Source: a bacterium (GTDB lineage: Bacteria; Ratteibacteria; UBA8468; B48-G9; JAFGKM01). Taken from it: a stretch of DNA of 64,000 nt. The notes under the pieces are model-generated. The model saw only the letters and a program-made list of their open reading frames with translations. It was not told the DNA's origin and did no database searches. Below, in pieces: positions 5,578-60,106 of this stretch (the stretch's first letter is position 1; every line of letters begins with the position of its first letter). Position numbers and translations under genes: made by a program. The stretch is taken from assembly GCA_023230585.1 (NCBI GenBank), contig JALNXB010000004.1, positions 10,196 to 74,195 on the forward strand, written 5' to 3'.

Positions 5578-5646
5578 TAGGCGGATAAACCATACTTCTC
5601 TCTCCTTTGGAACTACTCAAGATAAATCCCACAGAGGAGAAGGAGC
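5578..5646 (+). repeat. Degenerate copy of intergenic repeat module E
   Basis: GGCGGATAAACCATACTTCTCTCTCCTTTGG...CACAGAGGAGAAGGAG aligns loosely with GGCGGATAAACCTCATCCCATTAACTTCTCTG... at 56408-56492. It retains the CTTCTCTC / GAGGAGAAGG inverted repeat. Confidence 0.45.
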
Positions 5647-5680
5647 ATAGTGCTAATTTAATAGAGAAAGGAGATTAAAA

Positions 5681-7582
5681 ATGAGTAAACCATTAGTAAT
5701 CGTAGAATCCCCAACAAAAGCTAAAACCATTGGTGGTATGCTTGGAAACAAATTTAAGATTATGTCTACTATGGGACATATAAGAGACCTTCCAAAAAGT
5801 AAGATTGGAATTGATATAGATAATAATTTTGAACCTAAGTATGAAATAATTTCTGCAAAAAAGAGTTTGGTTTCTAAACTTCGCAAAGCTGCTCAGGAAT
5901 GTGATGAAATATATTTAGCAACTGACGAAGATAGAGAAGGTGAAGCTATTGCTTGGCATATTGCTTTTTCAATTGGGAAAGATTTAGACCAGGTTAAACG
6001 GGTAGCTTTCCACGAAATTATCCCAGAAGCTATCAAAAAGGCATTCGATTCCCCAAGACCTATATACCTTAACCTTGTTAACTCTCAGCAAGCAAGACGT
6101 GTATTAGATAGACTTGTTGGGTATACATTAAGCCCTTTTCTTGCAAAAAACCTTGAAAGAGGCCTTTCTGCTGGTAGGGTTCAATCTGTTGCTCTAAGAT
6201 TGATTGTTGAAAGAGAAAAAGAGATAGAAGCCTTTACGCCAGAAATATATTGGCTTATTAAAGCTGAGGTAGAGAAAGAAGGAAAAGGTTTTACTATGCA
6301 ACTTGTAAGAATGGATGATAAAAAACTTGATAGACATTTTTTAAAAAAACCTGATGATGTTAACAATATATTGGATAATTTAAATAAAGGCGAACTTATT
6401 ACAAAAGACAAAAAAGAATCTATCAGAAAGGTTAAACCTTATCCACCTTTTATAACAAGTACTTTGCAACAAGAGGCTTCAATTAGGCTAAGTTTTTCTT
6501 CTACAAAGACTATGCTTAATGCGCAACAATTATATGAAGGTATATCCATTGAAGATAACAACATAGGTTTAATTACATATATGAGAACAGATTCACCTTC
6601 AGTCGCTAAACCTGCTTTAAACCAGGCATTAAAACATATTAAAGAAACTTTTGGTGAGAATTATCTTCCTAAAAAACCATTCTTTTACAAAAGCAAATCT
6701 TCTACAGCCCAAGAAGCTCATGAGGCAATTAGACCTACTTCTGTTGATATGACGCCTGAAAAGGTAAAACCCTATTTGAACGAAGAACAACATAAACTAT
6801 ATTCTTTAATATGGAATAGATTTGTTGCAAGCCAAATGAAAGAAGCAGAAATTAAAAATGTAACTCTTACTGCTGAAAATGGAAGGTATACCTTTGAAAC
6901 AACTAACAACTCAATTCATTTTGATGGGTTTATGAAAATATGGGAAGTGAAGATAGACCAAGGTGAAAAAGATGTTCCAGACTTCAAAGAAGGAGAAACA
7001 ATACCTGTCACCAACTATATTAAAGAAGAACATACCACCAACCCTCCACCACGATATACAGAGGCAAGTCTAATAAAAACACTTGAGAAATACGGGATAG
7101 GAAGACCTTCTACTTACGCCCCTACCCTATCCATACTATTTAACCGTGGGTATGTTAAAAGAGAAAAGAGAACTCTTATACCATTAAAGATAGGAATACT
7201 TGTTAGCGATATTCTTACCCAATATTTTTCTGATATAATAAACACAAAATTTACCGCTCAAATGGAAGATAATCTTGATAAGATTGTTGAGGGGGATGTA
7301 CAATGGACAGAACTTATAAGTAAATTTTATTCTGAATTTAAACCAATGCTTACAAAAGCCGAAGAGTTGGTGTCTGAAAACATAAAAAAACTTGAAGAAA
7401 AACTGGTAGGTGATAAAGTGTGCCCAACTTGTAATGTACCGCTTGTTGTTAAAAGAGGTAAATTTGGGATGTTTCTTGGATGCCCAAGTTTTCCAAACTG
7501 CAAATATACAGAAAGGATAAAGGAAAATGTTAATTATTCCCGCAATAGATATAAAAAAAGACAAGATAGTAAGACTGTATAA
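5681..7582 (+). CDS. topA: DNA topoisomerase I (short form, single C-terminal zinc ribbon)
   Basis: TOPRIM start LVIVESPTKAKTI, DEDREGEAIAWH, ITYMRTDS active-site Tyr region, C-terminal CPTCNVPLVVKRGKFGMFLGCPSFPNCKY. SD-like AAAGGAG lies upstream of the ATG. Confidence 0.93.
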   Translation: MSKPLVIVESPTKAKTIGGMLGNKFKIMSTMGHIRDLPKSKIGIDIDNNFEPKYEIISAKKSLVSKLRKAAQECDEIYLATDEDREGEAIAWHIAFSIGKDLDQVKRVAFHEIIPEAIKKAFDSPRPIYLNLVNSQQARRVLDRLVGYTLSPFLAKNLERGLSAGRVQSVALRLIVEREKEIEAFTPEIYWLIKAEVEKEGKGFTMQLVRMDDKKLDRHFLKKPDDVNNILDNLNKGELITKDKKESIRKVKPYPPFITSTLQQEASIRLSFSSTKTMLNAQQLYEGISIEDNNIGLITYMRTDSPSVAKPALNQALKHIKETFGENYLPKKPFFYKSKSSTAQEAHEAIRPTSVDMTPEKVKPYLNEEQHKLYSLIWNRFVASQMKEAEIKNVTLTAENGRYTFETTNNSIHFDGFMKIWEVKIDQGEKDVPDFKEGETIPVTNYIKEEHTTNPPPRYTEASLIKTLEKYGIGRPSTYAPTLSILFNRGYVKREKRTLIPLKIGILVSDILTQYFSDIINTKFTAQMEDNLDKIVEGDVQWTELISKFYSEFKPMLTKAEELVSENIKKLEEKLVGDKVCPTCNVPLVVKRGKFGMFLGCPSFPNCKYTERIKENVNYSRNRYKKRQDSKTV

Positions 7583-8399
7583 AGGAGATTTCAATAAAAT
7601 AAGTCATTATGAACCTACTCCAGAAGACGCTTTTATACAATATTTAACTGCAAAAATTGAACGATTACATTTAATATTTCTTTGGGGGGCGTATTCTGGA
7701 AATATTTCTCCTGAAGAAGAGCAAGTGATAGATAAAATTATAAATGTTCGAGATATTTACGCAAAAAACACCTGCACAATACAGATTGGTGGTGGGATGA
7801 GGTCTTCCACAAGAATTTCCGAACTTATAAAAAAAGGTGTAGATTATATTATTGTTGGTACAGCTTTTATTATTCCTCTTGCTTTTGAGGAAGGTTTTAC
7901 AAAAAACGATATAAAAATGTTTTACCAAGCTGGAGGCAAAGAGTTTAATCAAGAAAAAGAATTGCCTGAATTTGGGCTTCCGGATTGTCTGGAGAAAGAT
8001 ATTCGTGAAAAGATTATTGTATCAATAGACTACAGGCAAGAAGAGACCGCTTTAAGCGGGTGGCAGGTAACTATCCCTTTAACTCCACACTATCTTATAA
8101 AAGAATTTATGAAGAAAGGATATAAAAGATTTATTTTAACAAATGTTGAGAAAGATGGTACCCTTGAAGGTATAGATATTGGTTCCATTAAAAACATTTT
8201 AGGTAAACTTGCTTTTGATAAGTGCTACCCTGAAGAAATAATTATTGCTGGCGGGGTTACCTCTGAAAAAGATATACAAAAACTTATGAACCTTAAATAT
8301 AAACCTTCTGGCGTTATTATTGGTAAAGCTCTTTATCAGCAGAGGTTTGATTTAAAAACAGCTGTTGCTAAATTTCAATTAAATGAAAATCAAAATTAA
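7527..8399 (+). CDS. HisA/HisF-family (beta/alpha)8 barrel protein, divergent and orphan
   Basis: N-terminus MLIIPAIDIKKDKIVRLYKGDF is HisA-like, and GGGMRS and IIVGTA are phosphate-binding-like. 290 aa with a ~25-aa insertion. The LHLVDLDGA segment is replaced by LHLIFLWGA. No other his genes are nearby. Confidence 0.6.
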   Translation: MLIIPAIDIKKDKIVRLYKGDFNKISHYEPTPEDAFIQYLTAKIERLHLIFLWGAYSGNISPEEEQVIDKIINVRDIYAKNTCTIQIGGGMRSSTRISELIKKGVDYIIVGTAFIIPLAFEEGFTKNDIKMFYQAGGKEFNQEKELPEFGLPDCLEKDIREKIIVSIDYRQEETALSGWQVTIPLTPHYLIKEFMKKGYKRFILTNVEKDGTLEGIDIGSIKNILGKLAFDKCYPEEIIIAGGVTSEKDIQKLMNLKYKPSGVIIGKALYQQRFDLKTAVAKFQLNENQN

Positions 8400-8979
8400 A
8401 GTTTCGTTCTTTTTTGTTTTAATATTATTTCTCTCTTCCTCGTTTAGGGTATTTCCTCAGGAATTTTCTGGAAAAATATCTACTGCCAACAATGAAGAAT
8501 ATTTTGAAAAAGTTTTAACAAAAATTAAAGAGGCAAAACAATCTGTTTACCTTATTATGTATATATCAAAATATTACGATAAATACCCTAAAAGTCCTGG
8601 AAATATTCTTCTTAAAGAATTAGCAGAAGCAAAAAAGAGAGGTGCAAAGGTAGAGGTTATTTTTAATCGTGGTATAAGAAAGGAGGATTCTTCGCTTACT
8701 AAAGAAAATATGAATACAGGCGCTTTTCTTGCCAAAAACGGTGTAACTGTTCTCTTCGATTCTGAAAAAAAAACCACACATTCAAAACTTCTTATTATTG
8801 ACGAGAAATACGTAGTAATAGGAAGCACCAATTGGACATATTATGCCCTTGCTTTTAACAATGAGACCGCAGTTATAATTGAATCGGTTCCTTTGGCGAA
8901 AGACTATGTAAAATATTTTGAAAAAGTAAAAAAAGAATGTATTTTTTTATTGAAACCATCTAATATTCCATCAAAATAA
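8383..8979 (+). CDS. Phospholipase D/Nuc-family protein with one HKD motif and a signal peptide
   Basis: HSKLLIIDEKYVVIGSTNWT is the HxK(x4)D(x6)GSxN motif. Hydrophobic N-terminus VSFFFVLILFLSSSF. 198 aa. Overlaps the upstream gene by 17 nt. Confidence 0.75.
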   Translation: MKIKIKVSFFFVLILFLSSSFRVFPQEFSGKISTANNEEYFEKVLTKIKEAKQSVYLIMYISKYYDKYPKSPGNILLKELAEAKKRGAKVEVIFNRGIRKEDSSLTKENMNTGAFLAKNGVTVLFDSEKKTTHSKLLIIDEKYVVIGSTNWTYYALAFNNETAVIIESVPLAKDYVKYFEKVKKECIFLLKPSNIPSK

Positions 8980-9052
8980 AACTACTGTAAGCCCTTCTCC
9001 ACTTCTTTTTGTTTTCTACCCGCACACTTTACCATCCTTAACGCCCCCTTTT

Positions 9053-9170
9053 GTTATCCTGAACTTGTTTCAGGATAACAAACTTAACCAACATAACAAG
9101 AGATAGTAAAAACGAGATTCCACCCTACATTCTTCTCTCCTCTGAGGGAGAGGATGCAAGGTGAGGGGGG
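9053..9170 (+). repeat. Composite intergenic repeat (module A hairpin, module B head, module C tail)
   Basis: A: GTTATCCTGAACTTGTTTCAGGATAAC (11-bp stem). B head: GTAAAAACGAGATTCC without its hairpin. GAGGGAGAGGATGCAAGGTGAGGGG also occurs, with one extra base, at 59971-59996. It lies between convergent genes. Confidence 0.85.
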
Positions 9171-9191
9171 CTGCCTTTGCAATTTCTCACA

Positions 9192-10772
9192 TCAAATAGA
9201 TTTATGGAGTTTGTAGTCTATACTATCAATTAATGCTTTCCAGGAAGCTTCAATAATATTTTCAGAAACACCAAGAGTGCCCCAGGTAGAAGTCCCGTCG
9301 ATTGTTTCTATAACAACTCTTGTAACAGCAGCGGTAGCTTGCTCAGGTTGTAAGATTCTTACTTTATAATCTGTAAGTTTCATATCTTTTATTTCAGGAT
9401 AAAACTTCACCAAGGCTTTCCTTAAAGCATTATCTAATGCGTTCACAGGACCGTTACCTTCGCTTGCAGTATGGGCAGTTTCTCTTCCAACCTTTACTTT
9501 AACTGTCGCCTCTGAGACAACCTTTTTACCTCTTTTTTCAACAATCACCCTAAACCCTTCTATCTTAAACAATTGTTTATACTCGCCTATAGATTTTCTC
9601 ACCATTATATCAAAGGAACCTTCTGCCGATTCAAATTGATACCCTTGATTTTCAAGTTTGCTAACAGTATCAAGAAGTTTTTTTATAACCTCTGGTTTCT
9701 TCTCAAGTTCAAAACCTTTAGTCTTTTGAAGTATAGTACTTTTTCCAGACAACTCAGAAAGAAGTATTCTCCTTTCGTTTCCAACAAGTGCTGGATTTAT
9801 ATGTTCATAGGTTCGAGGATTCTTTCCAACAGCATCAATATGAACTCCACCTTTGTGAGCAAAAGCACTAAAACCAACAAACGGCTGAGAGTTAGGGGGA
9901 ACAATATTTGCTTTCTCATACACAAAACGAGAGATTTCTGTAAGATGAACTAAACTATCTTTTTCAAGACACTCTAAACCCATTTTAAGTTTTAATATAG
10001 GAATAATTATTGATAAATCAGCGTTTCCACATCTTTCACCTATACCATTAATAGTCCCTTGTATATGTGTAACACCTGCTTTTACAGCAGAAATAGAATT
10101 TGCAACACCAAGCCCCGCATCGTTATGGGTATGGATACCTATTGGTAACTCTATTTGTTGTTTAACTTTTTTGATAATCTCCTCTATTTCAAAAGGTAGC
10201 GTACCACCGTTTGTTTCGCATAAAACAATCTTTTCTGCGCCTCCTTCAGCGGCAGCAAGTAAAGCTTTCATTGCGTACTCAGGATTCATTTTATATCCAT
10301 CAAAAAAGTGTTCAGCGTCAAAAAAAACCCTCTTCCCCATACTACATAAATACTTTATAGAGTCTTCAATCATAAACAGATTCTCGTCTAAATCTGTCTT
10401 AAAAACATCAGTTACATGTAAATCCCAAGCCTTCCCAAATATTGCAACACATTCGGTTTGACTCTCAATAAGTTTTTTAAGAAAATTATCGTCTTTAGCA
10501 GAAACAGATTTTCTTCTTGTACTTCCAAAGGCTACAATTTTTGATTTTTTTAATTTTTTGTTTCTGATTTTTTTAAAAAAAGTTATATCTTTTGGGTTAG
10601 AACCTGGCCAACCGCCTTCAATAAAATCTATTCCAAAAGAATCGAGTTTTTCTGCAATTCCAAGTTTATCAGATAATGAAAAAGAGATAGATTCTCCCTG
10701 AGAACCATCCCTTAAGGTTGTATCATAAATTTCTACTCTGTTCATAACTACCTCCATACATACTTTTTCCAA
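9192..10772 (-). CDS. Citramalate synthase / 2-isopropylmalate synthase family (CimA-like length)
   Basis: RVEIYDTTLRDGSQGE, HTHNDAGLGVANS, and a C-terminal LeuA-dimer-like regulatory domain. ~520 aa fits CimA-type enzymes. The true start is probably the internal MNRVEIYD (about 10745). Confidence 0.82.
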   Translation of the reverse strand: MEKVCMEVVMNRVEIYDTTLRDGSQGESISFSLSDKLGIAEKLDSFGIDFIEGGWPGSNPKDITFFKKIRNKKLKKSKIVAFGSTRRKSVSAKDDNFLKKLIESQTECVAIFGKAWDLHVTDVFKTDLDENLFMIEDSIKYLCSMGKRVFFDAEHFFDGYKMNPEYAMKALLAAAEGGAEKIVLCETNGGTLPFEIEEIIKKVKQQIELPIGIHTHNDAGLGVANSISAVKAGVTHIQGTINGIGERCGNADLSIIIPILKLKMGLECLEKDSLVHLTEISRFVYEKANIVPPNSQPFVGFSAFAHKGGVHIDAVGKNPRTYEHINPALVGNERRILLSELSGKSTILQKTKGFELEKKPEVIKKLLDTVSKLENQGYQFESAEGSFDIMVRKSIGEYKQLFKIEGFRVIVEKRGKKVVSEATVKVKVGRETAHTASEGNGPVNALDNALRKALVKFYPEIKDMKLTDYKVRILQPEQATAAVTRVVIETIDGTSTWGTLGVSENIIEASWKALIDSIDYKLHKSI

Positions 10773-10794
10773 CCGCTAAATAATGTGCTTACCT

Positions 10795-11976: not shown

Positions 11977-12078
11977 AGTTTAAGTGTTAATAAATTGTCC
12001 TATCATTATAACAGAAAACAAGAAAATAAGAAACTTGAAGGGGGTTTAAGATTTTTTTGCATTCTTTCTTCTTATTTA

Positions 12079-12116
12079 GTCATCCTAAACTTGTTTCAGT
12101 AACCTGCCTTTGCATT
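12079..12116 (+). repeat. Degenerate module A copy plus CTGCCTTTGCA tail
   Basis: GTCATCCTAAACTTGTTTCAGTAAC followed by CTGCCTTTGCATTTCT. Compare CTGCCTTTGCAATTTCT at 9171-9187. Confidence 0.55.
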
Positions 12117-12130
12117 TCTTTTGTAGAATT

Positions 12131-12159
12131 TTGACATTTGCAGTAAATTAAAGTAAATT
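12131..12159 (+). promoter_or_regulatory. Candidate promoter of the nfeD-like gene
   Basis: TTGACA (12131-12136), 17-nt spacer, TAAATT (12154-12159). The -10 box ends only 7 nt before the ATG at 12167, implying a very short or absent leader. It overlaps a tandem 10-mer AGTAAATTAA x2 (12142-12161). Confidence 0.35.
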
Positions 12160-12166
12160 AAAGGTT

Positions 12167-13456: not shown

Positions 13457-13462
13457 AGACAT

Positions 13463-13512
13463 AGGCAAGGATAAAAGAGGAGATTGCCACGTCATTTAAA
13501 AACACTCCTCCC
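13463..13512 (+). repeat. Fragment of repeat module F core
   Basis: GGAGATTGCCACGTCATTTAAAAACACTC aligns with GAGATTGCCACGTTAAGAAACACTCGC at 60064-60090. It lies between two plus-strand genes. Confidence 0.55.
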
Positions 13513-13577
13513 AACTCCACAAAACAGCAATAAAAGTAATATAAACATTATTTAACATCCAAACAAAGGAGTAGAAG

Positions 13578-14222: not shown

Positions 14223-14307
14223 TTCTCTTAAATTTTAAATTAAGAAAGTTGACTTTTTGATAGGAAATCTTATTTGAAAAGACCGTTTTGATACTGTTAA
14301 TAACGGA

Positions 14308-15666: not shown

Positions 15667-15675
15667 TATTACCTC

Positions 15676-18792: not shown

Positions 18793-19056
18793 TTTTTCCT
18801 CGCCTGCTAACAACCTCCCCTCACCTTGAATCCTCTTCCCTAAGGGGAGAGGCGAGTGGGGCGGAGATTGCCATCTTTTGCCTTCAGCCCCTCGGGGGGT
18901 GTTCGGGATAAATCCAGAATAACATACAAGGGTAACCTCATCCCATTAACTTCTCTGCAAACCCTTGGGGACTTACTACCCTAATACCCTCAAGGGAGAA
19001 GGTAAAGAGAGGTGCATTTTTTTTCGCCTTCGACGACTTTATCTTTACCCGCTAAC
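18793..19056 (+). repeat. Composite intergenic repeat (modules C, E, F-head fragment)
   Basis: C: TTTCCTCGCCTGCTAACAACCTCCCCTCACCTTGAATCCTCTTCCCTAAGGGGAGAGGCGAGTGGGGCGGAGATTGCCA, about 90% identical by eye to 29213-29290. E: CTCATCCCATTAACTTCTCTGCAAACCCTTGGGGACTTACTACCC. It lies between the valS stop and the rplU start. Confidence 0.88.
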
Positions 19057-23571: not shown

Positions 23572-23606
23572 TTATACCCTTTCTTTTTTCATCCTACTAT
23601 TGTTTA

Positions 23607-23970
23607 CCCCCCAATTCCTTTTCCGCCTTCGGCGAGATTGCCACGCTAAGAAGCCCCTCCTACGCCAAGGCTTCGGCGGGTAAAGCTCGCAAAATAAACT
23701 ACAAAAGACGGAATAGGGGGTAGTAAAAACGAGATTCCGGATCAAGTCCGGAATGACATATAGGGGGGAGTCTAATTTTTTATCATTACGTCTTTCGTTT
23801 TTGTTTAAGTTGCTAACTGCACCTCCACCTACGCCAAGGTATACCTGCCGAAGCTTGTATTTTAGCGTAGGTTGGCTTCGGTGGATAAATCTCATCCCAT
23901 TAACCTCTCTGCAAACTCTTAGGGACTTACTACCCCAAACATCCCCAAGGGGAGAGGGCAAAAAGGGGAA
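23607..23970 (+). repeat. Largest composite intergenic repeat (modules F, B, G, D, E)
   Basis: F: CCCCCCAATTCC...GAGATTGCCACG...GGAATAGGGGG. B: GTAAAAACGAGATTCCGGATCAAGTCCGGAATGACAT. G: GAGTCTAATTTTTTATCATTACGTCTTTCGTTTTT. D: CCTACGCCAAGGTATACCTGCCGAAGCTTGTATTTTAGCGTAGG. E follows. It fills the tgt-queA gap and generates two phantom ORFs. Confidence 0.9.
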
Positions 23971-24028
23971 GGTATATGCACCATAGTACCAAAGAGAGTA
24001 GATAACACCCCTTACTTTTTTACCCTTA

Positions 24029-29026: not shown

Positions 29027-29077
29027 TCAAAATTCTCCAATTTATTACCGTTTTTTTCTCTCAATCCACTATAGTTT

Positions 29078-29398
29078 GTCATCTTGAACCTGTTTCAGGT
29101 TCTCTAACCTTACCCACGCTGGTAGTAGGCACAACGTAAAAACGAGATTCCAGATCAAGTCCGGAATGACATACAAGAGAGAGTCTACTTTTTTATCACT
29201 ACGCCTTTCGTTTTTCCTCGCCTGCTAACAGCCTCCCCTCACCCTTGATCCCTCTCCCCCAAGAGGAGAGGCGAGTGAGGCGGAGATTGCCACGTTAATA
29301 AGCCCCTCCTACGCCAAGGTATACCTGCCAAAGCTTCTATTTTAGCGTAGGTTGGCTTCGACGAAAACTCGCAAGATAAACTACAAAAGACGGAATGA
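29078..29398 (+). repeat. Composite intergenic repeat (modules A, B, G, C, F with D insertion)
   Basis: All modules are present in one array. The A-linker-B part is about 86% identical by hand count to 42319-42414. It splits the glycan operon between a GT2 gene and the SDR gene. Confidence 0.9.
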
Positions 29399-29411
29399 GA
29401 AAAACAATCCC

Positions 29412-40701: not shown

Positions 40702-40759
40702 ATTAATCTCTTTTATCCCTCAAGCGTTCAATTTTTTGTATATTAAATTAAATTTCAAT

Positions 40760-42238
40760 TTACTTATTAAAAAAAATACTTATATTTGCGTTAATAAATA
40801 TGCTTTCATACAAACTCTCATACGAGATTACTGGCATATACCACATAGTTAAATAACAGAAAAAAATGACACTAAAAATTGTTTTATATGATAATTTATG
40901 AACTCTGCTTGTTTGAAATAAATGGGGTGTAAATTGCTCGGTAACCTGATGTTCTGATTCAGTAATCTCGTCTTTATCTTTTAAAAAAATAGTTGTAGAA
41001 AATAACATAAGCATAAAGTGTATATTTAGCCACCTTCCCCAATCACAGGCAAGTAAAAATAAGGGAGAAGAAAATACAAATAGCAATAATAAAGTTGAAA
41101 ATATCTTCAGATTACTTATTTGATATTTTAAATACTTTACAAAAAAATAAAATGGTATCAATCCTAAAAAAGTGCAGATACTATAAGTTATATAATAATT
41201 ATTAGTTTTTAAAAAATGTAAATTCTCTTTTATCCAATAAGTATTCCAATATGGGTCAAGTATTCCGTTATGGACTTCTGAACTTAAACCTCTTCTAACT
41301 AAATCGGCTCCAATTATTGGGCCATTGATATCTCTACCAAAAAGGAATATTAAAATCATTGCAAGAAGAGGTAAAAGTATAAACAATGAGTGTTGCCAAA
41401 AACTGTAAACTTGGTTTTCAACTTTGGATTTTAAATAGGCAATTAGCATAAAGTAAGGTGTGTAGAAAAATATTAACTCGTGAAAAAAAGTTGCAAAAAC
41501 AATTAAAAGAGAGAATAACAAGTTTGAAAAAAATGAATAATTTTTTTTCTTTTCTAAAGAGAGAAGATATAAAGCAAATATAAAAAATAAAATTATCTCT
41601 TTCCTACCTGCGCCAGCACTATCTAAAATAGGAAAACGTAATGTTGCCGGAGAAAGCAGAATTATTAAAAATAAAAAATTGATTTTTTTCTTATATATTA
41701 AACAGAAAAGCAGTACCATATATCCCAGATAAAAGAACGTCTGCACAGCTAAAACAATTGTATCAGGTTTTGTTTTCAATAAGTCAGATAAAAAAAGTAT
41801 TAAATAGCCAGATAATCCCCTTCGGACAAAACCTCCCGCAAAACTGATTAACCAATCTACGAAAGAATAAATTGAACAAGAAACAGCACAAGCATATAAT
41901 GTAAATAAATATTTTATTATAAAAGATATAAAAAATAATGGAATAATCAATCTTATGAACTTATTTCTTACCTTCTTCTTTACAAAAAACCAAGCTTTAA
42001 TAGAAATTAGAACAAGTACTAAATTGAACAACTTGTAAATTCCTACCGAATATCCACCAAGAGATATTCTTTGTTTTGTATTTAATATATTTGAAATTTC
42101 ATCTATTCTTGTTTCAGATATTATATTTTGGAGCCCGTATTTAAAACCAATAAATAACAACAAAAAAAGAGACACCAAAACAATGAATAGTGATAAAACT
42201 TTGAAAATTATCTTTTTATCTTCTCTGTTTTTTTTCAT
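40760..42238 (-). CDS. Polytopic membrane protein of unknown function (candidate Wzy-like polymerase)
   Basis: 492 aa with at least 10 hydrophobic segments and no motif I recognise. It sits between the amidotransferase and GT4 genes. The function is a guess from context only. Confidence 0.45.
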   Translation of the reverse strand: MKKNREDKKIIFKVLSLFIVLVSLFLLLFIGFKYGLQNIISETRIDEISNILNTKQRISLGGYSVGIYKLFNLVLVLISIKAWFFVKKKVRNKFIRLIIPLFFISFIIKYLFTLYACAVSCSIYSFVDWLISFAGGFVRRGLSGYLILFLSDLLKTKPDTIVLAVQTFFYLGYMVLLFCLIYKKKINFLFLIILLSPATLRFPILDSAGAGRKEIILFFIFALYLLSLEKKKNYSFFSNLLFSLLIVFATFFHELIFFYTPYFMLIAYLKSKVENQVYSFWQHSLFILLPLLAMILIFLFGRDINGPIIGADLVRRGLSSEVHNGILDPYWNTYWIKENLHFLKTNNYYITYSICTFLGLIPFYFFVKYLKYQISNLKIFSTLLLLFVFSSPLFLLACDWGRWLNIHFMLMLFSTTIFLKDKDEITESEHQVTEQFTPHLFQTSRVHKLSYKTIFSVIFFCYLTMWYMPVISYESLYESIFINANISIFFNK

Positions 42239-42318
42239 TTTTTTCGACGCCTTTTGCTTGTTTTACTATCTATTTTTGCCTTCTACTTGTTCACATTATC
42301 GCCTGAACGTCAAAATTT

Positions 42319-42422
42319 GTTATCCTGAACTTGTTTCAGGATCTCTAACCTAACTCACGTTGGTAATAAGCACTACGTAAAAAACGAGATTCCGGATCAA
42401 GTCCGGAATGACATGCAAGGGG
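42319..42422 (+). repeat. Intergenic repeat (module A, linker, module B) overlapping the 3' end of a GT4 gene
   Basis: GTTATCCTGAACTTGTTTCAGGATCTCTAACCTAACTCACGTTGGTAATAAGCACTACGTAAAAAACGAGATTCCGGATCAAGTCCGGAATGACATGCAAGGGG. The GT4 stop codon (42397-42399) lies inside module B. Confidence 0.9.
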
Positions 42423-43524
42423 AATATCCGCAGTTATCCTCATACAACTTCTCATAATTTTTAACCATCTTCTCAAGGGACAGGTTCTCTTTTACAAACT
42501 TATATCCACTCTCCCCCATCATTTTTCTTTTCTTATCGTCTTTTAATAAAGATAAAATACTTTTTGCAAGTTCCTCAGGATTTTTTGCTGGTATAACAAA
42601 CCCGCTAACCTTGTTTTTTACTATCTCAACAGTCCCGCCAACACCTGTCCCTATAACAGCCTTTTTTAAAGCCATACCTTCAATAAGAAGGTTAGGTAAC
42701 CCTTCCCATAAGGAAGACAGCACTACAATATCGCTTACCTTCATAACGTCCGATAAATCATTTCTATAACCAGTAAAGATAACAAATTTGTTCAACTTTA
42801 ACTTATCAGTCAACTCTAAAAGTTCCTCACGTTTTTCGCCTTCGCCTACTATAAGAAATTTTACTTCATCAAACTCTTTAACAACCATTGAAGCCGCCTG
42901 TAAAAAATAGTCAAGCCCTTTCTCAGCACATAGACGCCCTCCCGTTAAAACAACTATTTCGTCTTTTATTCCAAACTCTTCTTTAATTTTTTCTTTATAT
43001 TCAACCCTATCAAAAAAGGGCATATCAATACCATTGTAAATTACGCTCAACTTGTCTGAATATTTACCAAGAGTTTTTTTATACCTTTCTTTAACTTCTT
43101 TTGAGTTGCAAACTATATTTTGGCTATATTTAGCAAAAAACCTATCTATAAAAAAATAAAAAGGTGTCTTCCAGAAATCCATACTCAACTCTGAACCTAT
43201 AATAACAGGAACCCGATTTATTACCCCTGCCAGGCGACCCCATAGATTAGAAGTAAACATTGAGGTGTGAACGATATCCGGCTTTTCTGATTTTATTACC
43301 TTTATAAGGCGCACCAAAAAAAGAATATCAAGCTTCCATCTCTTTCCAATAATATGCACCTTGCATATCTTTTCAAAATCTTTCTGCATCCTACCGCCTC
43401 TTAAGGCAACCATAATCGGCTCAAACCTCTTTCTATCCAGATCCCTTATTAGAAGTTGTAACTGTTTTTCAGCCCCACCAACTTCTAATGTTCCAAGCAC
43501 ATAACAGATTTTTAAAATTTTCAT
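42397..43524 (-). CDS. GT4 (GT-B) glycosyltransferase
   Basis: SLWEGLPNLLIEGMALKKAVIGT is the E(x7)E region. 375 aa. The final codons ...CMSFRT plus the stop lie inside repeat module B. Confidence 0.85.
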   Translation of the reverse strand: MKILKICYVLGTLEVGGAEKQLQLLIRDLDRKRFEPIMVALRGGRMQKDFEKICKVHIIGKRWKLDILFLVRLIKVIKSEKPDIVHTSMFTSNLWGRLAGVINRVPVIIGSELSMDFWKTPFYFFIDRFFAKYSQNIVCNSKEVKERYKKTLGKYSDKLSVIYNGIDMPFFDRVEYKEKIKEEFGIKDEIVVLTGGRLCAEKGLDYFLQAASMVVKEFDEVKFLIVGEGEKREELLELTDKLKLNKFVIFTGYRNDLSDVMKVSDIVVLSSLWEGLPNLLIEGMALKKAVIGTGVGGTVEIVKNKVSGFVIPAKNPEELAKSILSLLKDDKKRKMMGESGYKFVKENLSLEKMVKNYEKLYEDNCGYSPCMSFRT

Positions 43525-44645: not shown

Positions 44646-44767
44646 TTTGCTCCATTATATTTTGGTTTAAACAAACTTAAAAGATTAAAAACAATCTCGC
44701 ATTTCAGTTTTTAGTTAGTAAATATTCGGTAAACCCCGTCATATTTTTGTTATAGTGACGGAGAAAA

Positions 44768-44816
44768 GCTCCCCTCACCTTTCATCCTCTCCCCCAGAGG
44801 AGAGTAGTGGGAGATT
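44768..44816 (+). repeat. Module C variant
   Basis: GCTCCCCTCACCTTTCATCCTCTCCCCCAGAGGAGAGTAGTGGGAGATT keeps the nested CCTCTCC / GGAGAGG hairpin. Confidence 0.7.
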
Positions 44817-47443: not shown

Positions 47444-47457
47444 AATGTTGTGTATAT

Positions 47458-52478: not shown

Positions 52479-52522
52479 TTATTTCGTTTCCCACAGTAGG
52501 TCAATTACATACTTTGATAGTT

Positions 52523-54452: not shown

Positions 54453-54471
54453 TAGTATCTCCTGTAAAAAA

Positions 54472-54580
54472 ACCTCTCCCCTTAATCCTTTCTTCCTGCA
54501 CACATTGTCATTTATGGAGCGGTGCAAAAACGAGATTGTCGCAGTCACAAAAAACGTTCCTTCGCAAAGACGGAGTGAGC
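54472..54580 (+). repeat. Degenerate repeat (B-head / F-tail like)
   Basis: CAAAAACGAGATTGTCGCAGTCACAAAAAACGTTCCTTCGCAAAGACGGAGTGAG resembles GAGATTGCCACGTTAAGAAACACTCGCAAAAACGGAATGG. It lies between rfbF and the 4,6-dehydratase gene. Confidence 0.5.
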
Positions 54581-54587
54581 AAAATTG

Positions 54588-56302: not shown

Positions 56303-56312
56303 CTTGTTTCTA

Positions 56313-56492
56313 CCATTCCTTTTTTGACTTCGGCGAGTCTTATCCCGAGTACCCCCGAGGGAATTGCAACGTTACGAAACCCCTCCTACGCTAAAATACA
56401 AGCTTCGGCGGATAAACCTCATCCCATTAACTTCTCTGTAAACCCCTGAAGACTCACTATCCCAAGAGCCTATAGGGTAGAGGGAGAACGGG
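56313..56492 (+). repeat. Composite intergenic repeat (F-head, D fragment, E)
   Basis: CCATTCCTTTTTTGACTTCGGCGAG..., CCCCTCCTACGCTAAAATACAAGCTTCGGCGGATAAACCTCATCCCATTAACTTCTCTGTAAACCCCTGAAGACTCACTATCCC. It lies between gmd and fcl. Confidence 0.85.
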
Positions 56493-56498
56493 AAAAAA

Positions 56499-57542
56499 CT
56501 ATGAGACCTTTGTCCAGTTAAAATTTTCTTTTTCAACTATTTTAATACCTTCACCTACCGGTTTTAACCCTACTTCCACCATATCATAATCAACCATTAT
56601 TTTTATAAGTTCTTCAAACCTAATACGAGGTTTCCACTTTAACTCCTTTTTTGCTTTCTCTATATCAGCGATAAGATCATTGACCTCTTTAGGACGAAAA
56701 TAGGTTGGGTCTATCTTTACATATTTTTTCCAATCAAGGTTTGCGTAAGAGAAAGATTTTTCTACAAACTCCTCAACAGAATGAGATTCACCTGTACCTA
56801 TAACAAAGTTATTAGGTTTTTCTTGTTGAAGAATAGCCCACATAGCTTCAGCATATTCAGGAGCAAACCCCCAATCTCTTTTTGCTTTAAGATTACCTAA
56901 ATATAGGAAATCCTGTTCTCCTTTAAGAATTCGTGCAATAGCTCGAGTGATTTTACGGCTTACAAAAGTTTCTCCTCTCCTTGGAGATTCGTGGTTAAAT
57001 AAGATACCATTACATATAAAAAGGTTGTATGAATCTCGGTAATTTTCTGCTATCCAGTAGGAATAAACCTTTGCTATTGCGTAAGGACTACAAGGTTTAA
57101 AAGGGGTGTTTTCGTTTTGAGGTGGCGGCGAATCTCCAAACATCTCGCTACTACTTGCTTGGTAAAATTTTGTTTTTATACCGCTTCGTCTTACTGCTTC
57201 CAAAAGACGGGTTGTCCCAAGCCCAGTAATATTACCGGTATATTCAGGCATATCAAAACTAACTCTTACATGACTCTGAGCTCCAAGGTGGTATATTTCT
57301 GAAGGTTTAATATTATAAATAAGGTTATCCAGTTGAGCACTATCGCTCATATCTCCGTAATGAAGAAAAAGGCGAGTGTCTGGAGAATGAAAATCAGAAA
57401 ATATATGGTCAATTCTAACAGTGTTAAAAGTGCTTGCTCTACGAATAATACCGTGGACTTCGTATCCTTTTTTTAGTAGAAATTCTGCAAGGTAACTGCC
57501 GTCTTGACCTGTTATGCCAGTAATTAACGCTTTTTGTCTCAT
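56499..57542 (-). CDS. gmd: GDP-mannose 4,6-dehydratase
   Basis: [50 protein letters not shown]. 347 aa. Confidence 0.95.
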
Positions 57543-57617
57543 TTTTCTCCAAAGTTTATTAATATTGTTTAATATATTTTAAACAAATTAAACTATTTTG
57601 TCAAGAGATGAGGGAGA

Positions 57618-57678
57618 ATAAAACGAGATTTGGACCAAGCCCGGAATTACATATAGGGGTAGTCTCATCTTTTATCCC
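57618..57678 (+). repeat. Degenerate modules B and G
   Basis: ATAAAACGAGATTTGGACCAAGCCCGGAATTACATATAGGGGTAGTCTCATCTTTTATCCC, compared with 23722-23800. Confidence 0.65.
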
Positions 57679-57680
57679 TT

Positions 57681-58190
57681 TTATTTTTTAAAGAAAGATT
57701 TTAACAGATCTATATTTTCAATAAAAAGGTCTGAATACTTTAAGAAGTCCTCTACTTTGGAGATAGAATCTAAGATATGTTTCCTCTGCTTATTAATCTT
57801 TTTTTCTTCTACTTTTGAAGATGGTTTAATTGAATCCTTTAATTCTGCAAGAGATTCTCTCATTGTTACCGTTCGTTTTTCTAAACCAGTTTTAAGTTTT
57901 TCTACCACTATTGACTCTATATCTTGGTTAGCTTTATAAAAACTTCTTACATATCCTTTTTTCCAGACCTTTTTTACAGCGTTCCACTCTTCAAGTTTCT
58001 TCATATTTATACTTATGTTTCCTCTACTTGCACCAAGCAATCTTCCTATCTCGGCCGGTGAAAGAGGGTCTGGACTTATGTATAAAAGAGCGTATATCTG
58101 ACATACGGTACGGTTTAAGCCAAGGCTTTCACCAATATTGCCAAGCATTTCTATAAATCTATCCCTTATTTTTTCTATATTTTTTTCCAT
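57681..58190 (-). CDS. Winged-helix transcriptional regulator (GbsR/MarR-like, COG1510-type)
   Basis: LGLNRTVCQIYALLYISPDPLSPAEIGRLLGASRGNISINMKKLEEWNAVKKVW is an HTH plus wing. 169 aa with a coiled C-terminus. Confidence 0.7.
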   Translation of the reverse strand: MEKNIEKIRDRFIEMLGNIGESLGLNRTVCQIYALLYISPDPLSPAEIGRLLGASRGNISINMKKLEEWNAVKKVWKKGYVRSFYKANQDIESIVVEKLKTGLEKRTVTMRESLAELKDSIKPSSKVEEKKINKQRKHILDSISKVEDFLKYSDLFIENIDLLKSFFKK

Positions 58191-58233
58191 AGTTTTAATT
58201 ATCTACAAAATTGTCCACCAATAACTAATCTTC

Positions 58234-59826
58234 TTAATTAAAATTTCTCTTTGAAAATTGAAGGTCACTTAAAAATTTGTAAGCTGGCTCAAAACCAGGG
58301 TTTATCCTTATAGTTTCTTCAAGATAATATGTAGCGGCTTCTTTTTTACCCATATCTGCAAGGATACAAGCAAGCATAAAGTTTGACCTAAAATCTCCCG
58401 GCATAAAATCGTAATATGCCTTTGCTTTTCTGTACCCATCGTCTAAATCTCTTTTTAAAAGTGCATACTCAATATTTTTAACACTTAACCCTGCAAAGGT
58501 TTCAAATGACACCTTAGGTATTAAAGGACCTGGGATAATATTAAATAAGGATGAAAATCCACCAACCCCTAACCACACTAATATCGGTATAAGAACTTTT
58601 TTTGCTTTGAACTTCTCAATACTCCATACAATAAAGTAGGCAGATAAAACAGTAAAACATCCAACTGCTGGTAAACGGAACCTATCAACAATAAAAAATA
58701 GAGTCACCCACACAACATTTATTATAGAGTATGAAGCAAATATAAAATTCCGTTTAAAATTTTTAATAGAAAGAACTATCAGCCCTCCCATTCCTAAAGG
58801 GAAAACAAATCCAAATTTAACAAACGCAACCCTTATAAAGGGAATTACTTTATCCAAAAGATACATATCAAGGTTCTGTGGCCATTCATAACTTGTAAAG
58901 AAAAGCCCAAGTTTCATAAAAAAGAGTTTCCAGAAGGCAAATGATAAAGGACTTAAAAGTTCTCCTTTGGGATAGTAGAATAACCCGATAGAATCTGCAC
59001 TGTTACCTATCTGCCAGTTAACAAGACCGTTTGTGCATATTGGCACAATCTCCCCTCCAACAAAATAGTTTCTAAGAGTAATAGGCAATATGGTTATTCC
59101 TGAAACAACAAGAAGTATTAACATTACAAATATAGGTTGAAATTTGACAGAACCTTTTGTAGGAAGTAATTTTTTTTGAGGATATAGGTATAGCCCTAAT
59201 AACAAAAAGGGGAGATATATAGCAATTGTAGGTTTTGAAAGAGCAGCAAGCCCAAGAACAATTCCAGACCAAACCCATCTTGATATATTTGGTTTTTCTA
59301 AGGCATAGAATATAAGAACAATAAAAAGTATAAAAAGGAAGTATATCAGAGAATCGCTTAAAACAGAAGAAGCATAAACTATTGAAGTTCTGTAAAAAAC
59401 ACTAAGAAATGCAGCAATAAGACCTACCTTCTCATTATAGATTTTTTTACCAATATAAAATAGTAAGAAAGATAAAAAAGTGTTCATTAATAATTGAAAA
59501 AATATTACCAAATTTAAGTTTGAGAAGAAGGCCTTGTATAAAAGAGCAAGAAAATATGGATATAAAGGGGTCATATAAAAAATATTACCGTCTACGTACA
59601 CGGGGTGTTTAATTATTTGCTGTGCCCAAAGCATAAATGTTTTCTGGTCGTGTTTATCCATTAAGAGAGGATTGAAATAGACTGTATCTTTAAAATAATA
59701 AAGAAAGATAATTCTTATCAATAAGCCAACTGCAAGTATGCCAAGTAACATAAGGTTTGTTCTATTGTTCAGTATTTTTTTTAGGTTTATTTTTTCCATA
59801 ATTTGTTTTATTTTCCCCTTTTTCAT
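58234..59826 (-). CDS. GT-C fold membrane glycosyltransferase (ArnT/PMT-like) with C-terminal TPR region
   Basis: 530 aa, ~12 TM helices, C-terminal TPR-like segment (YRKAKAYYDFMPGDFRSNFMLACILADMGKKEAATYYLEETIRINPGFEPAY). Confidence 0.73.
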   Translation of the reverse strand: MKKGKIKQIMEKINLKKILNNRTNLMLLGILAVGLLIRIIFLYYFKDTVYFNPLLMDKHDQKTFMLWAQQIIKHPVYVDGNIFYMTPLYPYFLALLYKAFFSNLNLVIFFQLLMNTFLSFLLFYIGKKIYNEKVGLIAAFLSVFYRTSIVYASSVLSDSLIYFLFILFIVLIFYALEKPNISRWVWSGIVLGLAALSKPTIAIYLPFLLLGLYLYPQKKLLPTKGSVKFQPIFVMLILLVVSGITILPITLRNYFVGGEIVPICTNGLVNWQIGNSADSIGLFYYPKGELLSPLSFAFWKLFFMKLGLFFTSYEWPQNLDMYLLDKVIPFIRVAFVKFGFVFPLGMGGLIVLSIKNFKRNFIFASYSIINVVWVTLFFIVDRFRLPAVGCFTVLSAYFIVWSIEKFKAKKVLIPILVWLGVGGFSSLFNIIPGPLIPKVSFETFAGLSVKNIEYALLKRDLDDGYRKAKAYYDFMPGDFRSNFMLACILADMGKKEAATYYLEETIRINPGFEPAYKFLSDLQFSKRNFN

Positions 59827-59828
59827 TT

Positions 59829-60106
59829 TAACATCCTGAACTTGTTTCAGAATCTTTCACTTAATCCACGTAACATAGGTAGTAAAAACGAGATTCCGGA
59901 TCAAGTCCGGAATGACAAGCAGATAGGGAGAAGGTGACATAGCCACACATTAACCTTTCTGCAAACCCCCGAGGGAGAGAGGATGCAAGGTGAGGGGTTC
60001 TTTTTCTTTTATGTTTTTATCCTTGCCTTTGCTTTTTTACCCCCATTCCTTTCCGCCTTCGGCGAGATTGCCACGTTAAGAAACACTCGCAAAAACGGAA
60101 TGGGGG
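59829..60106 (+). repeat. Composite intergenic repeat (modules A, B, E/C fragment, F)
   Basis: A: AACATCCTGAACTTGTTTCAGAAT. B is a perfect copy at 59882-59917. F has a perfect 10-bp closing stem, CCCCCATTCC (60040-60049) / GGAATGGGGG (60097-60106), around GAGATTGCCACGTTAAG. Confidence 0.9.

Follow-up and report, generated by a model that had tools for sequence, protein, structure and literature searches.

What are the hairpin-rich modules that recur between the genes of this 64,000-nt stretch of a Ratteibacteria contig (the window), and what kind of enzyme handles them? The preliminary description sorted them into modules A to G, found them in one orientation throughout and proposed REP/BIME- or IS200/IS605-like spread through single-stranded DNA (ssDNA). 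Our analysis indicates that the repeats are probably intergenic mosaic arrays built around hairpins of the Ssn-related-motif (SRM, NTS) type.

A recurrent family of intergenic modules was confirmed at all 13 loci originally listed. Copy numbers were far above chance (A, 5; B, 4 full copies; G, 2; against 0 expected from shuffles), and C, D, E and F were likewise recovered as repeats by self-BLAST of the window. Nine loci are strong (9053, 18793, 23607, 29078, 42319, 44768, 56313, 57618 and 59829) and four are short and diverged (5578, 12079, 13463 and 54472), each of these four still scoring above 495-500 of 500 shuffles when aligned with at least one of the reference copies. Stringent self-BLAST covered ~1.47 kb of the window; because the diverged copies add to this length, the original tally of roughly 2 kb is fair. 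The features are:

5578..5650, plus strand: diverged, internally deleted module E (GGCGGATAAACC...) between divergent genes; local alignment scores of 12-13 against three E copies (shuffle mean 7.2; reached by 0-5/500 shuffles); no BLAST recovery at E<=0.01.
9053..9079, plus strand: module A, a forward SRM-type hairpin, GTT-ATCCTGAA-cttgt-TTCAGGAT-AAC; self-complementary, exact pattern match.
9105..9121, minus strand: truncated module B, GTAAAAACGAGATTCC half only, its hairpin broken and followed by inverted C; self-BLAST family.
9128..9172, minus strand: inverted module C; over 41 nt it is 90% complementary to the copy of C at 44767-44807.
12079..12102, plus strand: diverged module A (pattern match, 3 mismatches) between divergent genes; alignment score 18 (shuffle mean 6.3; reached by 0/500 shuffles).
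13480..13507, minus strand: F core fragment (GAGATTGCCACG...AAACACTC) between two plus-strand genes; score 15-16, reached by 0-1/500 shuffles against two F copies and by 18/500 against a third.
18798..19012, plus strand: array in the valS/rplU gap (self-BLAST), with C 18798-18864, a GAGATTGCCA fragment, degenerate B 18893-18925 and E 18934-19012.
23608..23968, plus strand: array in the queA/tgt gap (pattern and self-BLAST), with F without D 23608-23720, B 23723-23760, G 23768-23802, D 23825-23874 and E 23880-23968.
29075..29396, plus strand: array (pattern and self-BLAST), with A 29075-29105, B 29136-29173, G 29181-29215, C 29216-29283 and F 29283-29396, in which D (29320-29354) is nested.
42316..42346, plus strand: module A, a forward SRM-type hairpin; its left edge is the breakpoint of a strain-level gene replacement.
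42378..42414, minus strand: module B, reading TGTC-ATTCCGGA-cttga-TCCGGAAT-CTCG on that strand; overlaps the end of GT gene 42397-43524.
44769..44813, plus strand: isolated module C, kept at the orthologous site in strain L131.
54531..54577, minus strand: F-core variant (CGAGATTGTCGCAGTCAC...TTCGCAAAGACGGAGTG), intergenic; the variant is also present in L131.
56313..56484, plus strand: array of an F5-like segment (to 56394), a short inverted D (56385-56414) and E (56407-56484).
57620..57676, minus strand: diverged module B with a G-like tail; 85% identity over 59 nt to 23726-23784.
59830..60110, plus strand: array (pattern and self-BLAST), with A 59830-59855, B 59882-59918, inverted C 59966-60004 and F without D 60040-60110, its closing stem being CCCCCATTCC/GGAATGGGGG.
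68898-69023, ~5 kb beyond the window end: array with B and C flipped.

The arrays sit within a glycan-biosynthesis cluster, and some copies adjoin the housekeeping genes valS/rplU and queA/tgt. As first described, coding sequence is avoided except at one 3' end, where the B at 42378-42414 covers 18 nt of the GT gene, its stop codon and the 5 codons before it. A second overlap, at 54472, is only apparent and stems from an over-long GTG ORF of 355 aa; the gene as called has 323 aa, and the Rossmann domain starts at residue 42 of the longer ORF. The 129-aa ORF (23572-23961) spanning the queA/tgt array had no Pfam match. Two arrays folded as ssDNA better than 100/100 shuffles (23600-23990, z = -2.9; 29060-29411, z = -3.6), in line with the hairpin richness noted at the outset. 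When the same organism was assembled independently from short reads, three contig ends fell inside arrays (18942, 23643 and 68930). The modules extend well beyond this region: E alone was found in 21 further stretches of JGI metagenomes (19 came from a single sample), and a related population, Ga0172382, carries dozens of well-kept repeat copies.

Judged by their sequences, A and B are one hairpin type on opposite strands, GTCAT-palindrome-ATCTCG, and A, B and the F core are variants of one unit. In this unit a (Y)GTC head on the 5' side precedes a palindrome whose first bases are AT(T)CC or ATCC; a C follows the palindrome directly, and the tail is TCG. The sequence is TGTCATCCTGAACTTGTTTCAGGATCTC for A and, on the minus strand, TGTCATTCCGGACTTGATCCGGAATCTCG for B. 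Because the forward reading is on the plus strand for A and on the minus strand for B and the F core, the common unit is a convergent doublet, with GTC heads facing outwards and one directional hairpin per DNA strand. The four B copies match the B consensus at 35-37 of 37 nt, with perfect or near-perfect stems, in a genome of 33% GC. Modules C, D, E and G and the outer F are lineage-specific, mostly hairpin-forming spacer repeats, and no counterpart of C-G was found outside the lineage. The modules as a whole follow a loose, orientation-biased grammar (A B (G) D E; F5 (D) F3) and are shuffled independently of one another, not as a block. The spacer repeats have probably piled up beside and inside the A/B/F-core hairpins through recombination and nested insertion, as in D within F or the inverted C after a broken B.

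Ssn GIY-YIG nucleases cut SRMs only as ssDNA (Chenal et al. 2025, Nat Commun 16:2388, PMC11893778). In the published NTS, CGTCATTCCCGCGMAVGCGGGAATCYRG, the three bases 5' of the palindrome govern cleavage and the C just after it governs binding (PMC11893778). By their architecture, which is also that of Neisseria NTS/dRS3, the core hairpins of the window probably belong to this repeat type, described in 2025 as the ssDNA target of the small Ssn enzymes. A survey with the B-derived pattern AACGAGATTCC-N9-15-GGAATGAC matched at least 120 stretches in most bacterial phyla, including CPR; B's membership in this cross-phylum set is partly circular, because the loci were retrieved with its own pattern. 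Stem positions left unconstrained by the pattern covary, 52 of 54 being paired among the matches listed (GC 24, AT 24, CG 4), and the unconstrained base 5' of GTC was C or T in 111 of the 122 matches listed. The hairpin and its GTC/CTCG flanks are conserved across phyla and the T-run is not. The hairpin type is thus widespread and under structural constraint. A forward SRM-like hairpin lay upstream of 55 of the 119 reverse hairpins among the cross-phylum matches listed, mostly at a gap of 6-31 nt, as against 7/119 downstream and 7/595 at random positions. The window shares a nearly base-identical A-B doublet with Wolfebacteria, Berkelbacteria and Thermodesulfovibrionales, a likeness that spans CPR bacteria, Nitrospirota and the Ratteibacteria/Omnitrophota-like host.

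Six of the 8-kb blocks listed carry an ORF of 94-98 aa (~95 aa) with a single GIY-YIG domain, within ~150 nt of a hairpin in five of the six; at two loci a forward and reverse doublet lies on both sides of the gene. A Pfam scan of three of these ORFs matched PF01541 at E values of 6e-15 to 2e-18, and the sole PDB sequence match of the six putative Ssn proteins was a weak one to a UPF0213 protein. No GIY-YIG ORF was found in 253 kb from the lineage, made up of the source contig (81 kb) and related JGI contigs (172 kb), and we therefore infer the enzyme link in the Ratteibacteria host. The published SRM search expression gave 0 matches in the window; it also misses nine of ten hairpins immediately beside GIY-YIG genes in the loci fetched.

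The alternative first put forward, spread on one strand during replication by a RAYT (Y1/HUH) or an IS200/IS605-like element, we regard as very improbable. Modules A, B, E, F and G do share one orientation within the window, and extragenic palindromes in mosaic arrays, with inverted doublets, do recall REP/BIME and REPIN elements, where a small dedicated enzyme acts on ssDNA hairpins. However, two C copies (9128-9172 and 59966-60004) are inverted relative to those on the plus strand at 18798, 29216 and 44769, the D at 56385-56414 is inverted as well, and functional hairpins occupy both strands. Moreover, the array at 68898-69023 is flipped although the genes there remain on the minus strand and the GC skew remains negative. 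Neither uniform orientation nor its dependence on the chromosome strand was upheld. The head is GTCAT, not GTAG or GTGG, and the doublet arms have different, not mutually complementary, stems, so that a REPIN-type long hairpin is impossible. A phmmer search with E. coli RayT (E<=10) found no homologue in ~1.15 Mb of repeat-bearing loci (~0.9 Mb from the cross-phylum set, 172 kb from the lineage and the 81-kb contig), against six Ssn-like genes of the GIY-YIG, not HUH/Y1, family. IS200/IS605 elements also have imperfect hairpins recognised in ssDNA, are cut at a distance from the hairpin and do not duplicate their target, but their end hairpins share one strand and flank tnpA (and tnpB), whereas the paired hairpins of the arrays lie on opposite strands without TnpA. 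What survives of the original proposal is a set of mosaic extragenic hairpins whose nearest characterised relatives are handled as ssDNA by a small nuclease; the RAYT does not. The window contains no transposase, as stated before, and no Ssn-type gene; its flanks are likewise free of transposases.

Equally improbable is an origin as ordinary MITEs, which would depend on a conventional DDE insertion sequence and show terminal inverted repeats as well as target-site duplications. The doublet ends TGTCAT...ATGACA resemble a short terminal inverted repeat, but this is formed by two inverted SRM heads, and the seven doublet boundaries inspected showed no target-site duplication. Nor did the lineage loci contain a recurrent transposase-like family, and independent shuffling does not fit a single mobile unit.

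Strain comparison bears on another possibility, that SRM-type sequences and filler arrived with horizontally acquired glycan cassettes and persist as relics, recombination scars with no dedicated nuclease. The 93%-identical strain L131 lacks the gene at 40760-42238 and has an F-C-SRM-B'-E array in its place; the break between the two sequences falls on the left edge of A. This gene swap, the position of arrays at cassette boundaries of a variable glycan cluster, the near-identity of the A-B doublet in distant phyla and the lack of an Ssn gene in the 253 kb of lineage sequence would all suit relics; moreover, ssnA is missing from 19% of genomes with >200 SRMs (PMC11893778). Still, we consider this explanation unlikely. 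The B copies have kept consensus and stems in a genome of low GC content, copies adjoin housekeeping genes, and the well-kept copies of Ga0172382 argue for ongoing maintenance or spread.

RNA-level elements of long operons (terminators, attenuators or mRNA-stabilising 3' hairpins), with orientation set by transcription, are about as doubtful. Where the flanking genes run in one direction, the A-B-E composite of the wider lineage points against them in 22 of 25 cases, so that the forward hairpin of B and its T-run fall on the sense strand. Within 18-30 kb no site is more terminator-like than B read on the minus (sense) strand (ATTCCGGACTTGATCCGGAAT CTCGTTTTTA), and every array lies between genes. 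The bias, however, fits gene direction and replication direction equally and therefore cannot separate the two, and across phyla it is weak (27:16). The T-run begins 4 nt past the stem, a terminator needs neither the 200-400 nt nor the 4-6 different hairpin modules of such arrays, and the copies between divergent genes (5578 and 12079) are unlike terminators. The consensus RNA structure of E is almost nil (-4 kcal/mol), and there was no Rfam match. As a secondary effect, an RNA-level role would not conflict with the Ssn model. The 22:3 bias, which that model does not predict, points to an added transcription- or replication-linked constraint, and the model accounts for C-G only as filler.

By homology with Neisseria and Wolbachia SsnA, the Ssn model would work as follows. 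In ssDNA formed during uptake, replication or repair, the hairpins would extrude and be bound by a ~95-aa single-domain GIY-YIG nuclease, presumably encoded elsewhere in the genome, which would nick a few nucleotides 5' of the GTC head. Such nicking may shorten or limit recombination tracts, and we propose that the arrays would therefore be boundaries and hot spots for the exchange of neighbouring surface-glycan genes. In favour of this reading, the arrays lie in a glycan-biosynthesis cluster, and in L131 an array replaces a gene up to the edge of module A. An Ssn gene in the host, cleavage of the hairpins and a biological effect are predicted by the same analogy.

Compared with the published NTS/SRM, the core hairpins share directionality, the (C/T)GTC head, the ATTCC/ATCC palindrome start, the C right after it and a YNG tail. 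They are likewise intergenic, multi-copy and clustered beside surface-structure genes, and in other fetched genomes the same hairpin type adjoins the small GIY-YIG genes. They differ in their stems (TCCGGA, CCTGAAC and TTGC), the published degenerate expression does not match them, and the lineage sequence available has no ssn gene. The text of PMC11893778 contains no account of a convergent doublet with two stems, of its near-identity between CPR, Nitrospirota and the Ratteibacteria lineage, or of the candidate phylum. NIMEs, in which dRS3 inverted repeats flank RS elements, were stated in 2007 to be unseen outside Neisseria (Bentley et al. 2007, PMC1797815). SRM-type hairpins together with C-G filler make the arrays of this glycan gene cluster NIME-like: short inverted-repeat hairpins (ATTCC...GGAAT) are interleaved with several families of 35-110-bp modules, GC-richer than the surrounding DNA, strain-variable and beside variable surface-structure genes. 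Unlike in NIMEs, the host is not Neisseria, the hairpin is not ATTCCC-N8-GGGAAT, and the Ratteibacteria modules have a loose grammar, an orientation bias and filler that is itself hairpin-rich. Because the core hairpins would be Ssn targets, stacked as in Neisseria arrays, the Ratteibacteria arrays are best seen as a fresh instance of a known Ssn-target repeat type.

Reverse-complemented, the window forms part of a 100-kb metagenome contig (ENA ERZ27247376 k141_1845705), 81 kb of which were rebuilt. Its GC content is 33%; from 14.3 kb to its end nearly all genes lie on the minus strand, and the GC skew is negative throughout. The closest named relatives of its ValRS, at 61-64% identity, come from MAGs of Candidatus Ratteibacteria, Omnitrophica and Elusimicrobia, which puts the source, an uncultivated bacterium, close to these lineages. 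The housekeeping genes topA, leuA, valS, rplU, tgt and queA lie near repeats, and a long surface-glycan cluster with GT1/2/4/10 glycosyltransferases, epimerases, PMT_2, DegT and AsnB (Pfam) extends from ~26 kb on. Two sets of DNA were used for comparison, namely 21 related JGI loci of the same lineage (172 kb) and 120 cross-phylum loci (~0.9 Mb).

The intergenic repeat family is real. Pattern searches yielded five copies of module A, four of B and two of G, against an expectation of zero from shuffled sequences, and modules C, D, E and F were found again by repeat finding and self-BLAST. Nine of the 13 loci in the preliminary description are strong, whereas those at 5578, 12079, 13463 and 54472 hold only short, diverged copies, each outscoring 495-500 of 500 shuffles when aligned to one or more of the reference copies. 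Stringent self-BLAST coverage of the repeats amounts to ~1.47 kb of the window, and the two largest arrays, folded as single strands, beat all 100 shuffles (z = -2.9 and -3.6). The copies are intergenic, as first reported, with the exception of one CDS 3' end: the B copy at 42378-42414 takes in the stop codon and the last five codons of a glycosyltransferase gene (18 nt of CDS). An apparent CDS overlap at 54472 was dismissed as an artefact, because the ORF with its GTG start is over-long. A search of Rfam at the gathering cut-off and at E<=1 returned nothing on the modules, only a tRNA and a chance snoRNA match.

The family is not confined to one region. About 11 A/B hairpins, and F cores in addition, lie within the 81 kb of the source contig, related contigs hold dozens of module copies, and the 26-nt core of E matches 21 further stretches in JGI metagenomes, 19 of them from sample Ga0172382 and one being L131, a ~93%-identical strain. 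In an assembly of this organism made independently from short reads (Logan), two contigs (L002 and L004) end within arrays at 18942, 23643 and 68930, which is what genome-wide repeats do to assemblies. A 129-aa ORF at 23572-23961 (minus strand) spans the array between queA and tgt; it has no Pfam match, consists almost entirely of repeat modules and is very likely a spurious gene call. For annotation, it matters that spurious ORFs run through the arrays and that short-read assemblies break within them.

The hairpins A and B resemble a motif described recently in Neisseria. About half of the dRS3 copies there belong to NTS (CGTCATTCCCGCGMAVGCGGGAATCYRG), the Neisseria version of the Ssn-related motif (SRM), and NTS-like SRMs are found in many phyla (Chenal et al. 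2025, PMC11893778). SsnA is a 94-aa single-domain GIY-YIG protein that binds these motifs solely when they are single-stranded, and then just one of the two strands; its cut falls a few nucleotides upstream. Cleavage is governed by the three bases 5' of the palindrome and binding by the C that follows it (PMC11893778). SRMs lie near 71% of ssnA homologues, and ssnA is present in 81% of genomes with >200 SRMs (PMC11893778). In the window, B reads TGTC-ATTCCGGA-cttga-TCCGGAAT-CTCG on the minus strand and A reads TGTC-ATCCTGAA-cttgt-TTCAGGAT-CTC. Each is a semi-palindrome with an 8-9-bp stem and a 3-5-nt loop, within the ~20-50 nt of an SRM core. The head expected 5' of the palindrome, GTC preceded by a base other than G, is present as TGTC in all four full copies of B; in A it is GTC in three of five copies and GTT in the other two. 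The palindrome of an SRM is followed directly by C and then YNG, and B has ...GGAAT-CTCG in 4/4 copies. In A, three of five copies continue as GGAT-CTC, GGTT-CTC and GAAT-CTT, the copy at 9053 has an A base, and the copy at 12079 is degenerate. Like SRMs, the hairpins are intergenic and occur in many copies in the DNA examined (the 81-kb contig and related contigs). Modules A and B share exactly the NTS/SRM architecture.

The published SRM expression, HGTCWYN(0-2)YYVSBRHN(0-5)WNVSBRGN(0-2)RNCYNB, has no match in the window. It recognises NTS but misses nine of the ten hairpins immediately beside GIY-YIG genes in the loci retrieved. The expression is thus narrower than the family, so that its failure in the window is weak evidence against membership, and surveys using it undercount. 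A structural scan for GTY, palindrome and C was rejected as too unspecific (five matches against two expected).

The preliminary description had all copies co-oriented on one strand. This does not hold. Module C is inverted at 9128-9172 and 59966-60004, where the match spans its non-palindromic half and hence reflects true inversion, and module D is inverted at 56385-56414. In an array at 68898-69023, 5 kb past the window end, both B and C are flipped, although the genes are still on the minus strand and the GC skew is still -0.12; the proposal that orientation tracks the chromosome strand is therefore wrong. More fundamentally, A and B represent a single hairpin type read in opposite directions, and directional hairpins thus occupy both strands in roughly equal numbers. 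A loose grammar governs the order of the modules (A B (G) D E; F5 (D) F3), and D and C flip freely within it.

Relative to co-directional flanking genes, the composite is antiparallel in 22 cases and parallel in three (81-kb contig plus the 21 related loci). Since gene direction and GC skew go hand in hand in this DNA, the bias cannot separate transcription from replication, and across other phyla it is weak (27 to 16 among the matches listed). A role as terminator or transcript stabiliser would fit the 22:3 bias. An intrinsic terminator has its U-tract immediately behind a GC-rich stem, on the sense strand; B passes a lax scan for such sites on that strand, with TTTTT beginning after a 4-nt spacer. 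This T-run, however, is specific to the lineage and is not kept across phyla. We regard this role as unlikely to be the explanation of the arrays and best seen as a possible secondary one.

A search pattern was derived from B with the inner stem and loop freed (AACGAGATTCC-N9-15-GGAATGAC) and run against one genome per GTDB species. At least 120 stretches matched; the phyla among the matches listed are Bacteroidota, Proteobacteria, Chloroflexota, Nitrospirota, Verrucomicrobiota, Firmicutes, Spirochaetota and several CPR phyla, and complete genomes have one or two matches per chromosome among those listed. The stem is extended by at least three pairs in 52 of the 123 matches listed, compared with 1.4% of shuffles. 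Positions 3 and 9 of the 11-nt class form a pair in 52 of 54 listed matches (GC 24, AT 24, CG 4). The base before GTC, which was absent from the search pattern, is C or T in 111 of the 122 matches listed. The freed positions show the behaviour of a hairpin under selection. Two structural classes were found, one fully paired and one with a T.C/C.T internal loop (ATTCC-TC-NN-loop-NN-TC-GGAAT). The commonest version in the cross-phylum loci has the conserved T.C/C.T 2x2 internal loop (34/54 of the 11-nt class among the matches listed). In one frame the T.C/C.T-loop hairpin translates as E-I-P-R-F-A-R-N-D-K; such peptides are frequent in spurious metagenome ORFs. The B-type pattern had a single match (L129) among the 2.9 million viral contigs of IMG/VR, which offers no hint that the hairpin came from phages.

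Upstream of the reverse hairpin there is a forward SRM-like one in 55 of the 119 cross-phylum matches listed, mostly across a gap of 6-31 nt, compared with 7/119 downstream and 7/595 at random positions. The usual unit is therefore a convergent pair, or doublet, with its GTC heads outward, of which the A-B pair in the window is one example. The two arms normally differ in stem. The A-B doublet of the window recurs with nearly the same bases in Wolfebacteria, Berkelbacteria and a Thermodesulfovibrionales MAG, where only the spacer varies. The text of Chenal et al. 2025 (PMC11893778) mentions neither the convergent arrangement nor these phyla. With Ssn cutting 5' of the head, each strand of a doublet would have one cut site, at the outer edge. 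Conservation almost base for base in very distant phyla makes the doublet a concrete hypothesis for a functional or mobile unit.

Conventional MITEs of a DDE insertion sequence would carry terminal inverted repeats and a target-site duplication. No duplication was seen at the inspected doublet boundaries and the modules recombine independently of each other, which makes MITEs a very improbable explanation. Another form of mobility can be proposed with low confidence: the doublet (forward SRM, 6-45-nt spacer, reverse SRM) might be a non-autonomous unit mobilised in trans by a GIY-YIG Ssn through ssDNA intermediates. The mosaic arrays would then be insertion graveyards, since copies would insert beside or into existing hairpins. 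If so, the system would be REPIN-like, but its enzyme would come from a nuclease family that is not known to transpose bacterial DNA, and the doublet would move between groups as far apart as CPR, Nitrospirota and Ratteibacteria/Omnitrophota-like bacteria.

The link between hairpin and nuclease was seen in the cross-phylum set. An ORF of 94-98 aa with a GIY-YIG motif is present in six of the ~120 listed 8-kb loci (L040, L058, L067, L072, L083 and L123). Three of the six were scanned and matched Pfam PF01541 over the whole length and nothing else substantial; the six are candidates for the cd10448 type, that of ssnA. A hairpin lies within ~150 nt of the GIY-YIG gene in five of the six loci, and in two Chloroflexota loci a forward and reverse doublet flanks the gene on each side. 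A profile of the six proteins matched nothing in either the 81-kb contig or the related contigs (172 kb). An Ssn partner in this genome is therefore putative. The opposite reading, in which the hairpins are relics or hitch-hikers in a genome that has no such nuclease, is consistent with the missing ssn gene in these 81 kb and 172 kb, and we consider it improbable.

The preliminary description had invoked a RAYT or an IS200/IS605-like enzyme, a guess that was right in kind and probably wrong in family. A phmmer search with E. coli RayT gave no match at E<=10 in ~1.15 Mb (the contig, the 120 loci and the 21 lineage loci). REP sequences combine a GT(A/G)G head with an imperfect palindrome, whereas the heads here are GTCAT or GTTAT. 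For IS200/IS605, the contig has no tnpA, and the paired hairpins lie on opposite strands, not on the same strand. With head, RAYT gene, tnpA and same-strand hairpins all lacking in the DNA searched, mobility of the RAYT/IS200 type is highly unlikely. The Pfam listings contain no transposase or nuclease gene in the window and no Y1_Tnp in the contig, in agreement with the earlier remark that the window has no transposase. None of the recurrent protein families beside the arrays in the lineage loci is nuclease- or transposase-like; the largest are epimerase-like and pseudopilin-like, judged from sequence alone. Seven or more paralogues in the related population (loci L130-L150), one of them at 3782-4483 of L133, carry a prepilin-type N-terminal signal; their only relevance is that in Neisseria the function of Ssn is linked to the uptake of DNA.

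Among the remaining modules, F has a core, GAGATTGCCACG...CTCGCAA, that represents a reverse SRM (ATTGC class) in degraded form; L131 keeps the intact form, GTCATTGCGAG...CTCGCAAT. Modules C-G gave no matches in the ~0.9 Mb of cross-phylum loci. Copies of D and E in the window, together with a small hairpin outside all module families, are as follows.

23825-23880, module D, one of three allelic forms with common flanks CCTACGC ... GCTTCGG
29305-29360, module D, one of the same three forms
56378-56419, module D, one of the same three forms
18937-18963, module E core, CCTCATCCCATTAACCTCTCTGCAAAC, 27 nt
23891-23917, module E core
56418-56444, module E core (23 more copies in L130-L150)
44735-44765, small hairpin CCGTCA-N18-TGACGG, just upstream of an isolated C copy and kept in L131

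Module D was correctly described as an optional insertion inside F, and it also occurs before E. Its three forms have a 4-nt linker, a 10-nt linker, or a long form that holds the reverse complement of the 10-nt form. The long form looks like the self-insertion of one copy, inverted, into another, which would give interleaved, pseudoknot-like pairings. The E core is almost invariant and lies outside any predicted stem, although some of this invariance follows from the search pattern itself; the core may be a site where a protein binds. The RNA consensus fold of 23 E copies reached -4 kcal/mol with little covariation, and E is unconvincing as a structured RNA, given this weak fold.

Taken together, we consider it probable that the arrays are built on SRM-type hairpins served by an Ssn encoded elsewhere in the genome. 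The nuclease would act on the hairpins as ssDNA, and its action would shape recombination around the glycan cassettes. Strain variation was examined in L131 (LSQX01357618.1). Window positions 40729-42313 correspond to L131 240-594, which is without the 492-aa gene at 40760-42238; this gene has no Pfam match, and the DNA around it has ~28% GC. In its place L131 has a 355-nt array composed of an F variant, C, the intact form of the F-core hairpin, a B variant (B') and E, and the right breakpoint of the difference coincides with module A's left edge. Both strains have the C copy at 44769, which leaves no insertion boundary to be defined there.

The arrays are of a known kind, recently described, and the novelty is modest: the published motif is too narrow, the doublet spans phyla, and NIME-like arrays occur in a candidate phylum. 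In neisserial intergenic mosaic elements (NIMEs), short hairpins formed by inverted repeats alternate with 50-150-bp repeats of many families (Bentley 2007, PMC1797815), and these elements vary between strains and sit beside surface-structure genes (PMC1797815). The arrays of the window fit this description, strain variability included. Their repeat families (C 68 nt, E ~80, G 35 and F ~70-115) occur in shuffled combinations, and the swap of a gene for an array in L131 fits the NIME picture. The arrays bracket strain-variable glycan cassettes, in parallel to the Neisseria repeat arrays beside variable surface genes. In the strict sense they are not NIMEs, because the host is not Neisseria and the hairpins, B (ATTCCGGA-N5-TCCGGAAT) and A (ATCCTGAA-N5-TTCAGGAT), are related to dRS3, the 20-bp inverted repeat ATTCCC-N8-GGGAAT on either side of the RS elements, but distinct from it. 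Ssn/SRM hairpins and NIME-like arrays, the latter once thought to be specific to Neisseria, appear to reach an uncultivated, AT-rich candidate phylum.
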